Source: Octopus vulgaris (Eukaryota). Taken from it: DNA of 64,000 bases. Positions 1 to 36,590 of the stretch are shown one piece after another. The notes below the pieces were generated by a model, which saw only the letters and a list, made by a program, of their open reading frames with translations, had not been told where the DNA came from and made no database searches. The stretch spans positions 38,006,001-38,070,000 of the forward strand of contig OX597833.1 of the NCBI GenBank assembly GCA_951406725.2. The letters run 5' to 3'. The translations under genes and the position numbers were made by a program. Positions within the stretch are counted from its first letter, which is position 1. Every line of letters starts with the position of its first letter.

Positions 1-61
1 GCTGATGATGGCTGCAGTTTTCCTTGCGGAAAATAACAGCTGAAACTAAGTTAGTACATGG
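1..61 (+). ncRNA. Type I hammerhead ribozyme, copy 1 (5' strand of helix I cut off by the window edge)
   Basis: g-CTGATGA-t-ggctg...cagct-GAAA-ctaagttag-TA-catgg. Confidence 0.85.
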
Positions 62-501
62 GTAATTATTTTATTTCGTATATTTTTCACTTGTTTATTG
101 CTAAGGTTTTGTGTTGAGTTTGATCTGAGAACATAATCTTTTGTGGAGAATGACGATTTGACGTCTATATCTAGCATGTTGACTGTCCACTTTTCGTGTT
201 CAGTCCTTAATTGGTATATATAAATATTTTAATCTTCGGATTCTTTTTTAATATGCTAGACCACTGGTCTTAATTGATAAATATCAATTTCTACCCTTAA
301 TTAATTTTATATAAATAAATGTTCTCTAACCGATAAATTAACTGCTGCTAATTATTAGCTGCAGGCTAGTTTTCTCGGGTCTCAACGCGCCAAAGTAAAG
401 GCATTTGAAAGATATATTCAAATGTAATAGGCTGAACTCCATGCACGCGATATTTCGGTATCGTGTTTGCATTTAGTCCAGCAAATTACATTTATAACGG
501 A

Positions 502-566
502 CCATGCTGATGATGGCTGCAGTTTTCCTTGCGGAAAATAACAGCTGAAACTAAGTTAGTACATGG
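502..566 (+). ncRNA. Type I hammerhead ribozyme, copy 2; predicted cleavage after GUA (A561)
   Basis: Helix I ccatg/catgg; core CTGATGA (507-513) plus an extra U; helix II ggctg/cagct extended by ttttcc-ttgc-ggaaaa; GAAA (547-550); helix III A-ctaa-g-ttag-T; H17 = A. Confidence 0.9.
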
Positions 567-1006
567 GTAATTATTTTATTTCGTATATTTTTCACTTGTT
601 TATTGCTAAGGTTTTGTGTTGAGTTTGATCTGAGAACATAATCTTTTGTGGAGAATGACGATTTGACGTCTATATCTAGCATGTTGACTGTCCACTTTTC
701 GTGTTCAGTCCTTAATTGGTATATATAAATATTTTAATCTTCGGATTCTTTTTTAATATGCTAGACCACTGGTCTTAATTGATAAATATCAATTTCTACC
801 CTTAATTAATTTTATATAAATAAATGTTCTCTAACCGATAAATTAACTGCTGCTAATTATTAGCTGCAGGCTAGTTTTCTCGGGTCTCAACGCGCCAAAG
901 TAAAGGCATTTGAAAGATATATTCAAATGTAATAGGCTGAACTCCATGCACGCGATATTTCGGTATCGTGTTTGCATTTAGTCCAGCAAATTACATTTAT
1001 AACAGA

Positions 1007-1071
1007 CCATGCTGATGATGGCTGCAGTTTTCCTTGCGGAAAATAACAGCTGAAACTAAGTTAGTACATGG
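1007..1071 (+). ncRNA. Type I hammerhead ribozyme, copy 3
   Basis: Identical to 502-566, shifted by 505 nt. Confidence 0.9.
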
Positions 1072-1511
1072 GTAATTATTTTATTTCGTATATTTTTCAC
1101 TTGTTTATTGCTAAGGTTTTGTGTTGAGTTTGATCTGAGAACATAATCTTTTGTGGAGAATGACGATTTGACGTCTATATCTAGCATGTTGACTGTCCAC
1201 TTTTCGTGTTCAGTCCTTAATTGGTATATATAAATATTTTAATCTTCGGATTCTTTTTTAATATGCTAGACCACTGGTCTTAATTGATAAATATCAATTT
1301 CTACCCTTAATTAATTTTATATAAATAAATGTTCTCTAACCGATAAATTAACTGCTGCTAATTATTAGCTGCAGGCTAGTTTTCTCGGGTCTCAACGCGC
1401 CAAAGTAAAGGCATTTGAAAGATATATTCAAATGTAATAGGCTGAACTCCATGCACGCGATATTTCAGTATCGTGTTTGCATTTAGTCCAGCAAATTACA
1501 TTTATAACGGA

Positions 1512-1576
1512 CCATGCTGATGATGGCTGCAGTTTTCCTTGCGGAAAATAACAGCTGAAACTAAGTTAGTACATGA
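1512..1576 (+). ncRNA. Type I hammerhead ribozyme, copy 4 (G>A at 1576 shortens helix I to 4 bp)
   Basis: Same core; 3' strand reads catga instead of catgg. Confidence 0.88.
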
Positions 1577-2016
1577 GTAATTATTTTATTTCGTATATTT
1601 TTCACTTGTTTATTGCTAAGGTTTTGTGTTGAGTTTGATCTGAGAACATAATCTTTTGTGGAGAATGACGATTTGACGTCTATATCTAGCATGTTGACTG
1701 TCCACTTTTCGTGTTCAGTCCTTAATTGGTATATATAAATATTTTAATCTTCGGATTCTTTTTTAATATGCTAGACCACTGGTCTTAATTGATAAATATC
1801 AATTTCTACCCTTAATTAATTTTATATAAATAAATGTTCTCTAACCGATAAATTAACTGCTGCTAATTATTAGCTGCAGGCTAGTTTTCTCGGGTCTTAA
1901 CGCGCCAAAGTAAAGGCATTTGAAAGATATATTCAAATGTAATAGGCTGAACTCCATGCACGCGATATTTCGGTATCGTGTTTGAATTTAGTCCAGCAAA
2001 TTACATTTATAACGGA

Positions 2017-2081
2017 CCATGCTGATGATGGCTGCAGTTTTCCTTGCGGAAAATAACAGCTGAAACTAAGTTAGTACATGG
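2017..2081 (+). ncRNA. Type I hammerhead ribozyme, copy 5
   Basis: Identical to 502-566. Confidence 0.9.
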
Positions 2082-2232
2082 GTAATTATTTTATTTCGTA
2101 TATTTTTCACTTGTTTATTGCTAAGGTTTTGTGTTGAGTTTGATCTGAGAACATAATCTTTTGTGGAGAATGACGATTTGACGTCTATATCTAGCATGTT
2201 GACTGTCCACTTTTCGTGTTCAGTCCTTAATT

Positions 2233-2276
<44 letters not shown>

Positions 2277-11909: not shown

Positions 11910-12128
11910 TATATATATATATAAATAGATGAGTGTATTTTACCTTGTTAACAATTAACACGGATAAATAAATAAATAGTTACCAGGGCAGCAAAAATCT
12001 CACAAGTAAAGATGTTGTAACTCCTTGTTTATAAAGCTATTGCTAAGAATTTTCCAAACAATTCTAGATATTACTCTATAATTAATTCACATAAGGTTAG
12101 GATAGGTTTTTCAAACACAAAAAATCTC

Positions 12129-12668
12129 TTGCAAATTATATCTTCTCATAATAACAAACTGTTAAATATTAATACATTTACTAATACTAACATTAATTTA
12201 GCTAATACCATCCAACCCTCTAGAAATATTAATAACAAGGTTATTGTATCTGAAGTCAATTCCAATAGAATTAAATTTATGTCAAGTAACTCTAAGATTA
12301 AAAATTCTATATACCAGTGTATAATCAGTACTCGTAATAAAGTACGATTTTACATTGGAAGCACATCGTTAGAGTTATCTAAAAGAATTTCTATCCATTA
12401 CTCAACATTTAGGGATAGAAATAAACGGAATAGTACCAGTCTCAGCAAACTGATTTGGGATTTAAAAGACCACAATGAACAATTTCATTTAGAATGGTTG
12501 ATCCTCTCAATTTCGATACCATATGACAAAGGCAAGAAATTCTATCTTCTCTGCAATTCTGAGCTATTTTTCATTATTTTTTCTAAAAATACTCTAGTAA
12601 ACACGGTTATAGAACGAGCATACAGATGTAAGCATTGGCAGAAACATACTTTTAGTGCATATAAGTAG
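12129..12668 (+). pseudogene. Penelope GIY-YIG endonuclease C-terminal fragment
   Basis: NSIYQCII...FYIGST...KRISIHYSTF...STSLSKLIWDLK...EWLIL...LCNSELFFI...CKH; no RT domain upstream. Confidence 0.88.
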
Positions 12669-12868
12669 TCTCTATCATTATATATAGTTTAAACTTTAAT
12701 TTCCTTTATATTTAACATTCACTATTAATATCCCTACTCTTTCTGTTAGCTACTTATGACGTTATATCATATAACGTTTTTTTAAACAATATTAATAGCG
12801 TTCTGTCTATCGCTATACGAATCCATCATTTTTTGCTAAAATGTCGTATTGACGAGTTTCGTTTTTTC

Positions 12869-12954
12869 ACTTTCCTGAAGAGAAGATTGCATTGTTTATA
12901 CCTTTTATTCTTTTGAATAGTATCAGTGGAATTTTCGAAACATATGTAGAAAGT
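12869..12954 (+). ncRNA. Type I hammerhead ribozyme (CUGAAGA core)
   Basis: actttc-CTGAAGA-gaagatt...aattttc-GAAA-catatg-TA-gaaagt; 6-bp helix I; palindromic helix III ACATATGT. Confidence 0.88.
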
Positions 12955-13014
12955 AAAAATACTTGTTTAAACCTGCGTTAACTCCATTTTTTATTCATAT
13001 ATATATATACATGC

Positions 13015-33877: not shown

Positions 33878-35726
33878 TCATCATCATCATCATCATCGTT
33901 TAACGTCCGCTTTCCATGCTAGCATGGGTTGGACGGTTCAACTGGGGTCTGGCAAGCCCGAAGGCTGCACCAGGCCAGTCAGATCTGGCAGTGTTTCTAC
34001 AGCTGGATGCCCTTCCTAACGCCAACCACTCCGAGAGTGTAGTGGGTGATTTTATGTGCCACCGACACAGGTGCCAGACGAGGCTGGCAGACGGCCACGC
34101 TCGGATGGTGTTTTTTATGTGCCACCGACACAGGTGCCAGACGGGGCTGGCGGACGGCCACGCTCGGATGGTGTTTGTTACGTGCCCTAAGCACGGAGGC
34201 CAGTCGTTGCGGTACTGGCTACGATCACGTTCGGATGGTTTTCTTATGTGCCACCGGCACTGGTACCACAAGGATACAAATTCCATTGATGTTCATCTAT
34301 TTTGATTTGGTTCGATTTGATTCGATCCGATTCTCACTTGCCTCAACAGGTCTTCACAAGTGTCACAAGAAGGAAGGTATGCACAGGTGGACTGACTACG
34401 TCCCAGGTAGGGGCCACGGATTATGGCTTCACTAGTCTTGCCGGGTCTTCTCACGCACAGCATACTTCCATAGGTCTCGGTCTCTAGTCATTTCCATGGT
34501 GAGACCTAACGTCCGAAGGTCGTGCTTCACCACTTCGTCCCAGGTTTTCCTGGGTCTACCTCTTCCACGGGTTCCCTCAACTGCTAGGGATTGGCACTTT
34601 CTCACACACCTATCTTCATCCATTCTCGCCACATGACCATACCAGCGCAATCGTCTCTCTTGCACACAACAACTGATGCTTCTTAGGTACAACATTTCTC
34701 TCAAGGTACTAACGCTCTGTCGAGTAAGTACACTGACATTACACATCCATCGGAGCATACTGGCTTCGTTCCTCACGAGCTTACGCATGTCCTCAGCAGT
34801 CACGGCCCATGTTTCACTGCCATGTAGCATAGCTGTTCGTACACATGCATCATACAGTCTGCCTTTTACTCTGAGCGAGAGGCCTTTAGTCACCAGCAGA
34901 GGTAAGAGCTCCCTAAACTTTGCCCAGGCTATTCTTATTCTAGCAGTTACACTTTCAGCGCACCCGCCACCACTACTGACTTGGTCACCTAGATAGCGGA
35001 AGCTATCAACTACTTCTAGTTTTTCCCCCGGAAAGTGACGGAAGTTGTTTTCTGCAGATTTTCGGAGGTCAATGCTCCAGAGCATCTGCCACATACAAAA
35101 ACTATCTTCCCAGTTAGCCTACCTTTGACATTGCTGCACCTCTTATGTGTCCATAGCTTACACTGGGTACATCTTATAGAGTTTCTACCTACACCTTTTC
35201 TACAGATCGAGCAGGGCCATCTTCCTGAGGATATTTGTGGATTTTCTAACTTTCTACTTATTAGTACTTTGGTTTTAGCTAGGTTGACTCTAAGGCCCCT
35301 CGATTCTAAACCCTCCTTCCACACCTGGAACTTCTCCTCCAGTTCTGATAGTGACTCAGCGATTAGAGCGAGGTCGTCAGCATAGAGGAGCTCCCAGGGG
35401 CAACCTGTCTTGAATTCCTCCACAATTGCCTGGAGGACTATGATAAATAGGAGGGGCTGAGTACTGAACACTGGTGGACCCCAACCTCTACCTTGAATTC
35501 TTCTGTGTACATGCTGCCAACTCTAACCTTACTTACGGCATCTCTGTACATGGCTTGCACAGCCCTCACCAGCCATTCATCTATCCCTAGTTTCCTCATT
35601 GACCACCAGATGAGGGATCGGGGGACCCTATCAAAGGCTTTCTCCATGTCAACGAAAGCCAGGTACAGGGGCTTATCTTTGGCTAGGTATTTCTCCTGCA
35701 GCTGCCTTACCAGGAATATAGCATCA
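33878..35726 (-). mobile_element. 5'-truncated RTE-clade LINE, young copy, with (GAT)n tail
   Basis: RT motifs [34 protein letters not shown] and VNLAKTK; C-terminal RRLRWYGHVARM and GRGRPRKTW; internally repetitive 3' UTR. Confidence 0.96.
34432..35725 (-). pseudogene. RTE reverse transcriptase (partial, two frameshifts) with an inserted PHD-type zinc finger
   Basis: ORFs 35438-35992 (3' part only), 35016-35471 and 34432-35094 join into one RT polypeptide across frameshifts near 35455 and 35030. Confidence 0.93.
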
Positions 35727-35949
35727 ATATATACACATATATACAAACATATATATATATATACACACATATATACAAACATATATATATATATATACAC
35801 ATATATACAAACATATATATATATATATACACATATATACAAACATATATATATATATATACACATATATACAAACATATATATATACACACACATATAT
35901 ATATATATATATACACACACATATATATATATATACACACATATATACA

Positions 35950-35991
<42 letters not shown>

Positions 35992-36035
35992 TACATATAT
36001 ATATATATATACATACATATATATATATACATACA
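35727..36035. repeat. Compound TA/CA minisatellite (same unit as 33305-33877)
   Basis: Read directly. Confidence 0.95.
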
Positions 36036-36049
36036 TGTGACCATGCTGA

Positions 36050-36590
36050 TGCACCACTGTTTTGCTACACTGTTATTACTAAAAGCCTCCTCTAATATGT
36101 GGCATTTGGTGAAGATTGGAGTTTGATATAGCTACCCTCATTTGCACCTCTTGCTGTGAGGTAGCTTCATCTGGGACTCTCGACAGGAAGAGGTCCAGCT
36201 TTGATTTAAAAACCCCTACATCTACTTTGTGCAAGTTCCTCAGACTCTTTGGGAGAATATTAAAAAGTTGTCAGCCCTTGAAACCCAGGCTGTTGCAGTA
36301 ACTGGTCCTGAAGCGTGATGGCTTTGCTGGGATCTTTGGCACTATGTAGTGTCATCCTGTTCTGGCATTGGTGTAGCTTTCAATGCCAAAATTTGGCACA
36401 ATTCCTTCCAGGATCTCCCAGATATATATTACTGCATACCTCTCCCATCTTCTCTCCAGGGTGTAGAGTCTTAGCTGTTTCAACCTTTCCCAGTAGCTGA
36501 GCTGTTGCAATGAGACGATCTTCTTTGTGAATCTTCTCTGTGCACTATTTTTAGGGGTTAAGCTTTCTCTCTTATCTCCCCTTGGCCAAT
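36050..36590 (-). mobile_element. CR1/L2-group LINE 3' fragment
   Basis: AQRRFTKKI..LSYWERLKQLRLYTLERRWERYAVIY...FKSKLDLFLSRVPDE. Confidence 0.85.

Follow-up and report, generated by a model that had tools for sequence, protein, structure and literature searches.

A tandem array of 505-bp units, each with a hammerhead ribozyme motif, opens a 64,000-nucleotide stretch of Octopus vulgaris DNA (the window: GenBank assembly GCA_951406725.2, contig OX597833.1, positions 38,006,001 to 38,070,000 of the forward strand) and raises the question of what kind of element the unit is and on which strand its many hairpins are selected. An earlier note had proposed that the structure is selected in the RNA of the hammerhead strand, as in a compact viroid-like circle rather than an ordinary DNA satellite. 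The array is laid out as follows.

1-2242, plus strand: right arm of a two-armed insertion of tandem 505-bp units (locus L021)
57-561, plus strand: one monomer, predicted cleavage site to predicted cleavage site; non-coding, circular RNA predicted
502-566, plus strand: type I hammerhead motif (stem I 502-506/562-566, stem II 515-546, stem III 550-560)
2235-2274, no strand: (TA)20 target microsatellite, entered by the array at site A (see below) of the last, partial unit

This arm begins about 1.1 kb upstream of the window; farther out still is the inverted arm, which is 1.1 kb long and ends at site B. At the left end of the locus a short repeat of the site B sequence closes the inverted arm, perhaps marking a priming restart. 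Hammerhead cores at window positions 2, 507, 1012, 1517 and 2022 are spaced by the unit length of 505 bp, and the unit copies in the window differ from the copy at 506-1010 at 0-4 positions. The unit has a GC content of 33% and is non-coding, with longest ATG frames of 19 and 44 aa and no RT plus GIY-YIG reading frame. Arrays of this unit are pure tandems without terminal repeats.

The hammerhead core consists of CUGAUGA (507-513), GAAA (547-550) and GUA (559-561), in agreement with the canonical CUGANGA, GAAA and UH elements, and cleavage is predicted after A561. An extra U follows A9 and is itself followed by a G-U, leaving the young subfamily with no G10.1-C11.1 pair; G-C is found in some older copies. 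A search of Rfam at gathering and E-value thresholds returned no hammerhead or other ribozyme match and four chance hits. Stem III is near-palindromic, and a perfect palindrome in several older copies, with a predicted stability of -0.2 kcal/mol as a hairpin and -10.6 kcal/mol as a duplex. The two-unit stretch 498-1075 is predicted to fold without constraints into a double hammerhead. In the monomer circle, 507-511 of the core is predicted to pair with 555-559 (p 0.78); with its core blocked in this way the circle would therefore be stable. As modelled, the behaviour of stem III and of the core matches that of the animal and Penelope hammerheads whose control by dimer formation is described in PMC4209133. 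The complete ribozyme motif occurs on the plus strand only: the minus strand contains one loose core match, which arises from the cUUCGg hairpin read in reverse and has, on inspection, no stems I and III.

Outside the ribozyme we distinguished the following structures, with pairing scored over rows of aligned related copies.

78-417, plus strand: long-range rod, 78-118 with 381-417; 3 of 33 pairs double-changed, several G-U/Watson-Crick swaps
127-326, plus strand: 'priming domain', a multibranch fold closed by 127-133/320-326 and containing both end sites
143-264, plus strand: helix 143-146/261-264 (GUGG/CCAC), nearly invariant over 39 rows
170-260, plus strand: helix 170-180/250-260 with hairpin 181-205, two pairs of which change on both sides
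231-242, plus strand: cUUCGg hairpin, conserved in older copies of the 505-nt family; not UUCG there in two sister families
266-295, plus strand: hairpin 272-289 on stem 266-268/293-295, 87-100% paired over 39 rows, just upstream of site B
342-364, plus strand: hairpin with a conserved outer CUGC/GCAG stem and an inner stem mostly specific to the young subfamily
420-493, plus strand: 74-nt rod capped by u(UUCG)g, with the strongest covariation (9 of 29 pairs double-changed)

The unusual stability claimed for the unit is borne out, as the circular fold of 57-561 has a predicted energy of -139.0 kcal/mol compared to -98.6 +/- 5.3 for 60 dinucleotide shuffles (z -7.6), far from the shuffles, and 66.5% of the predicted 505-nt circle is paired. 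Without the ribozyme (62-500) the z-score is -8.05, and none of 100 shuffles folds as well. The reverse complement, the other comparison put forward by the earlier note, is also stable (z -6.8 and -7.16); both strands fold well, so the z-score alone cannot fix the strand, and we rejected it as a strand test. Folding of older monomers of the 505-nt family was attempted for three, one of which gave no unit, and the other two had z -4.2 and -1.8.

All seven strings checked from the earlier note lie where it placed them, bar one that is shifted by one base. The predicted ensemble gives pair probabilities of 0.82-0.99 for helix 170-180/250-260, 0.83-1.0 for hairpin 272-289 and more than 0.9 for most pairs of the rod 420-493. 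C-G occupies 171-259 in 15 rows, U-A in 20. The shifted string, agacc-act-ggtct at 258-270, can form a weak hairpin (p ~0.02, a cost of 3.2 kcal/mol), owing to competition from both 170-172/258-260 and the better conserved helix 143-146/261-264, although its pairs are still kept in most older copies of the 505-nt family. That helix has p 0.13 in the window copy, 0.6 kcal/mol off the optimum, is paired as in the window in 35-39 of 39 rows and has a predicted counterpart in the two sister families; the closing helix 127-133/320-326 is paired in 90-100% across 40 rows. Both of the supposed UUCG tetraloops are present, but they differ in their closing pair, which at 231-242 is C-G (30 of 37 rows, p 0.63), giving a genuine cUUCGg, and at 454-457 is U-G. 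The hairpin at 342-364 stands in its outer stem, whereas three of its five inner pairs are broken in older copies. In the fifth full unit of locus L037 the rod contains a 32-nt foreign insert.

Covariation was scored across related copies, so that counts are not independent events and the P values below overstate independence. In the rod 420-493, 86.9% of cells are paired, over the 28 of 46 rows used, versus 34-47% when the alignment is slid, and 34 cells are changed on both sides versus 12.4 after shuffling; its nine double-changed pairs were reached by 46 of 500 shuffles and its cell count or score by 0 of 500, in a control that ignores relatedness. With all 46 rows, 7 of 29 rod pairs are double-changed in at least three rows, against 10.8% for a null of complementary column pairs (P ~0.03), and in the hammerhead stems the figure is 7 of 24 pairs (P ~0.002). 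The priming domain is conserved, not covarying: over 84-311, double changes in 3 of 48 pairs are not above the null (P 0.43), although the paired fraction, 0.85 versus 0.74, does exceed it (P 0.005). Hairpin 342-364 with its flanks covaries no better than the null. Among young copies the recurrent substitutions are too few for a structure test (6 keep a pair, 3 break one and 6 are unpaired).

The strand of selection was read from tolerated mismatches. Among confident pairs, G-U appears in at least 15% of rows in 18 columns and C-A in 3 (P 7e-4), and private mutations show no strand bias (A>G 19, T>C 26; C>T 21, G>A 25). Such an excess of G-U on a symmetric mutation background argues that selection acts on the plus-strand RNA. 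Together with the covariation, this upholds the proposal of RNA-level selection on the hammerhead strand: the z-score of the circle is far from ordinary, and older subfamilies keep most stems by compensatory changes. A-to-I editing was considered as a trace of an RNA intermediate and rejected, there being no excess of A>G (19 versus 26).

We then turned to the genome (2.8 Gb, 227 contigs). Many contigs carry short arrays that match the 505-bp unit at 98-100% identity (38 of 1685 candidates scored), and a 19-mer adjoining site B has 2359 exact matches compared to 1 for a control. Older subfamilies at 60-75% identity are likewise pure tandems, as are two sister families. The young sister family, of 493 nt, is 56% alike over 515 columns (score 263 versus at most 213 in 30 shuffles; circular z -5.7), and the older one, of 480 nt, is 55% alike (score 228 versus at most 203; z -1.1 for the single copy folded). 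Across the three families (505, 493 and 480 nt; 55-56% alike) the domain layout is kept and the sequence changed; the 493-nt family retains the outer GUGG/CCAC helix, the long helix and a hairpin before each site. The 493-nt family (L335:1158-1650) has the core CCGAAGA (U4C) in 24 of 25 pattern matches, taken from overlapping loci, and a double hammerhead is predicted for it; U4C lowers activity in vitro, with viroid infectivity still possible (PMC3088659). In the 480-nt family (L379, L360-L388) we noted the shared domain layout, two-armed insertions and, by eye, a hammerhead-like motif that would cut after U.

The insertions end at two UA tracts within the priming domain.

214-222, plus strand: site A, UA tract, end of one arm; putative start of reverse transcription
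307-313, plus strand: site B, UA tract, end of the other arm; putative second start of reverse transcription

The two sites lie about 92 nt apart in loops of the domain to which the earlier note had drawn attention, and their UA tracts (215-222 at A, 308-313 at B) are predicted to be mostly unpaired. Site A is the longest alternating UA tract of the unit and B the joint second-longest, the other 6-nt tract (412-417) being paired. Arrays sit in (TA)n and their ends run into it, where target-site duplications are unreadable. Among 38 young loci, scored without one short extra match in L049 and without matches below 85% identity, 26 are two-armed, with the arms head to head; 25 of these end at A and B, and the remaining one combines B with an end elsewhere. 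Of the 12 loci with a single arm, seven end at A and five at B. A fresh sample of 20 loci contained 18 two-armed ones (15 A/B, 1 B/B, 2 B/other), so that the 44 pooled young two-armed loci comprise 40 A/B, 1 B/B, 0 A/A and 3 ending elsewhere. Where both ends fall at a site, 40 of 41 pooled loci are mixed (P 2e-11); L246 is the sole locus with both arms at site B. In a mixed-age sample of 87 loci, picked largely by a motif beside B and after removal of 13 duplicate loci, 42 are head to head, 36 of them A/B and 6 with an ambiguous end, with no A/A or B/B. In the 493-nt family, all 6 loci in which both ends can be seen are A/B.

In contrast to these fixed 3' ends, the 5' ends are scattered (n=64), with five within 12 nt of the predicted cut site. 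The predicted cleavage site is crossed by 61 of 64 arms, up to seven times, and one arm can hold up to seven full units with nothing between them. Arm junctions mostly have a 0-10 nt overlap. Taken as a whole, the arrays have the footprint of Penelope mobilisation, that is, a tandem with an inverted 5'-truncated copy and a tail between fixed ends; PMC8557442 describes tandem, inverted truncated copy and tail as a Penelope-specific signature, and PMC11167929 describes the tail as the stretch between two internal RT starts.

Host Penelope-like elements show a comparable end rule. In a 781-aa RT/GIY-YIG family the insertions, also in (TA)n, end at two sites separated by 40 nt. The spacing is 160 nt in a hammerhead-bearing 778-aa family, where each arm uses a different site in 9 of the 17 loci listed; for the remaining 8, exact anchors failed to bring both ends into view. 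The window itself holds a member of the latter, which served as a positive control.

11912-13000: truncated two-armed copy of the high-copy 778-aa Penelope-like family, positive control for the end rule

The 778-aa frame belongs to full copies of the family. This copy lies in (TA)n and includes a GIY-YIG end (12021-12668) and a minimal hammerhead with palindromic helix III (about 12869-12954). A partner for the unit was sought with a GIY-YIG family search, the Penelope fragment of the window and two outside relatives as queries, which sampled part of the host Penelope families and yielded families with long intact frames of about 781, 778, 727, 718-722, 838 and 842 aa. In 140 Penelope-like loci (10 further loci left out), blastn and nhmmer found no unit sequence shared, bar nested short insertions, and a partner enzyme for the 505-nt unit was not found among these sampled loci. 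Raised read depth over 125-310, considered as a shared Penelope end, is explained by short 5'-truncated insertions.

Several observations were made alongside. Minimal hammerheads stand beside four long-frame Penelope-like families and none beside the 781-aa family (L089-L104; L284-L328). By eye, the tail of the 778-aa family (L219:2430-2540) has two crossing complementary segments around the first end site, a possible pseudoknot. A 334-aa frame at L108:5308-6312 matches GIY-YIG and, weakly and below the cut-off (E 0.004), Parvo_NS1. On the minus strand of the window, 34432-36064 contains broken reverse-transcriptase frames, interrupted by a TA-rich repeat, that resemble an RTE-type LINE.

In order to rationalise these features, we propose that the unit is probably an animal non-LTR retrozyme. 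It would rely on a borrowed Penelope-like RT/GIY-YIG protein, predicted from the insertion footprint, to copy its RNA into (TA)n DNA. The array would be transcribed, and neighbouring hammerheads would pair through the near-palindromic stem III and cut out 505-nt monomers to be ligated into circles. Judging by the sequence pattern, the rods and the multibranch domain 127-326 appear to be under plus-strand selection, and the domain would display UA tracts A and B mostly unpaired. The enzyme would nick both (TA)n strands, each 3' end priming at one tract, and the two cDNAs would grow outwards-in and join head to head. The product would be a two-armed array with one arm at A, the other at B and scattered 5' ends, which is the footprint observed. 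A more specific and tentative version, to which we give somewhat less than even weight, is that domain 127-326 acts as a conserved template-presenting scaffold, loosely telomerase-RNA-like, which holds a Penelope RT dimer on two UA loops such that both nicked (TA)n strands prime at once on a small RNA circle. Several findings count against the proposal: 140 Penelope-like loci held no autonomous element with sequence in common with the unit, double changes in the priming domain do not exceed the null, 4 of the 44 young two-armed loci are not A/B, six locus-private variants (see below) are not shared by all units of their array, and the hammerhead has neither the usual G10.1-C11.1 pair in the young subfamily nor an Rfam match. 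In addition, in the one Penelope tested in vitro, anole Poseidon, the RT start is AC-rich and not homologous to the cut DNA (PMC11167929), whereas both putative starts of the unit are UA tracts complementary to the target.

In such a scheme the template could be circular, as a monomer or a multimer, or else an uncut multimer, and the variants within arrays bear on this choice. Recurrent variants number 0.13 between units of one arm, 0.18 between opposite arms and 2.7 between loci, and eight private variants are shared by all full units of the array concerned, one of them by the full units of both arms; such uniformity is compatible with repeated passage around a single template. A single monomer circle cannot, however, produce the six locus-private variants that are restricted to part of the units of their array. 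In L044 and L056 the terminal unit is without a variant carried by upstream units. The partial variants could reflect copying from a multimer, a switch of template or local duplication at a later stage, and within-array variants do not prove a rolling circle. More generally, in L056, L043 and L044 variants alternate or run through adjacent units and are missing from the terminal unit. For L056, with a variant in units 1, 3 and 5 of 6, we rejected a dimer circle, the alternation being broken by the terminal unit.

We therefore weighed the possibility that the retrozyme is copied from uncut linear multimer transcripts, like Penelope tandems, with the circle a by-product or absent and the fold serving RNA stability and enzyme binding. 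Runs of adjacent units that share variants absent from other units (L026, L032, L044, L056) speak for copying from multimers, as does the report that the anole Penelope did not need hammerhead cleavage in vitro (PMC11167929), but later local duplication can explain the variant runs. Uncut multimers seem unlikely, though still worth serious consideration, in view of the eight private variants in all full units and the difference of 0.13 within an arm versus 2.7 between loci, and of a cut site that is crossed up to seven times and has 5 of 64 5' ends within 12 nt. Another rival is a viroid-like replicon that copies RNA to RNA and leaves genomic copies as by-products. Hammerhead viroids and satellite RNAs are small, branched or rod-like, non-coding and possess UUCG loops. 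The compact, highly paired, non-coding and viroid-sized unit with its hammerhead resembles them, also in predicted cleavage of multimers and not of the monomer (PMC4209133); moreover, cloned circles of the mussel retrozyme had no database match, and RNA-RNA replication is one option raised in PMC7229834. Yet the complete ribozyme motif is confined to one strand, the roughly 2.7 recurrent variants between young loci are unlike a quasispecies, and every spread event observed has a DNA-insertion footprint, making such a replicon highly improbable. Viroids are independent of genomic DNA, whereas this unit is encoded and spread by the host genome, with thousands of motif matches, and shows no sign of RNA-to-RNA replication or infectivity. 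The 'viroid-like' label of the earlier note is thus not supported for a genome-encoded element with a Penelope-type DNA insertion footprint and a complete ribozyme motif on one strand.

Two readings would place the unit within DNA or within a larger element. One, in which the unit would be a terminal repeat belonging to a still undiscovered autonomous Penelope-like element and the arrays its truncated ends, is improbable: the footprint and ribozyme type are common to both and the host Penelope families were sampled in part, but up to seven full units per arm follow each other without intervening sequence on many contigs, the ATG frames are no longer than 19 and 44 aa, the 140 Penelope-like loci gave no match beyond nested short insertions, and the older subfamilies and the two sister families are likewise pure tandems. 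Scarcely credible is an ordinary DNA satellite, or a foldback element, in which the inverted repeats would function as DNA; the good fold of the reverse strand (z -6.8, -7.2) would fit it, whereas the tolerance of G-U but not of C-A, the conserved hammerhead core with its covarying stems, and the short dispersed arrays with fixed 3' ends and scattered 5' ends speak against it. The earlier note was right in setting the unit apart from an ordinary satellite, given its dispersed short arrays with fixed ends.

Comparison with known elements points to the retrozymes. The 505-bp tandem units each have a type I hammerhead, are low in GC and non-coding, and form dispersed arrays with a highly self-paired predicted circle; the animal non-LTR retrozymes of coral, mussel and axolotl (PMC7229834) and of vertebrates (bioRxiv 10.64898/2026.07.22.740005) are described in the same terms: their tandem units are poor in GC, lack coding capacity and carry one type I hammerhead apiece, they are scattered as short multimers with highly self-paired predicted circles, and their genomes contain Penelope-like elements. 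By analogy with known retrozymes, circular RNA is expected (PMC7229834). The unit differs in its length of 505 nt, compared to about 170-400 nt for the circles of invertebrate retrozymes (PMC7229834), and in that cleavage and circles are demonstrated for known retrozymes (PMC7229834, bioRxiv 10.64898/2026.07.22.740005) and predicted from sequence here. Homology to a pLTR is given for 24 of 57 Xenopus retrozyme families (bioRxiv 10.64898/2026.07.22.740005), and none was found for the 505-nt unit. The available text of these two accounts mentions neither a fixed pair of end sites nor arms joined head to head, nor any covariation beyond the ribozyme (PMC7229834, bioRxiv 10.64898/2026.07.22.740005), and the word 'inverted' has 0 occurrences in PMC7229834.

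With EN+ Penelope-like elements, the unit shares the tandem with an inverted 5'-truncated copy, the tail between two ends and (TA)n or AT-rich targets (PMC8557442, PMC11167929), but it has no RT or GIY-YIG frame, and its tail of about 92 nt compares with 30-40 nt in Penelope (PMC8557442, PMC11167929) and 160 nt in one host family. Its hammerhead is like those of Penelope in being type I, with a short palindromic helix III working as a dimer and an extra base between 9 and 10.1 (PMC4209133). It has been proposed that retrozymes originated from Penelope elements and make use of them (bioRxiv 10.64898/2026.07.22.740005).

The element class is already known, and the 505-nt family is most likely a member of the animal non-LTR retrozymes. 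Our literature search, which covered publications without their supplements, returned none on the 505-nt family or on twin end sites in retrozymes; the preprint may list the family. What the family adds is the link of RNA structure to the two end sites and the conservation of that structure over three families. The origin of the inverted copy and tail of Penelope, and the mobilisation of retrozymes by Penelope, have been proposed and are, in the sources at hand, unproven (PMC7229834, PMC8557442, PMC11167929, bioRxiv 10.64898/2026.07.22.740005). The 505-nt family offers a short, very young and protein-free substrate with a near-absolute rule of one arm per site, and this rule, together with the covarying fold around both sites, makes the Penelope two-start model testable on an RNA of 200-500 nt. 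If the scaffold reading is true, a 200-nt RNA would be a minimal natural substrate for the question of the Penelope inverted copy and tail, and the domain may be a portable signal for two-armed insertion.
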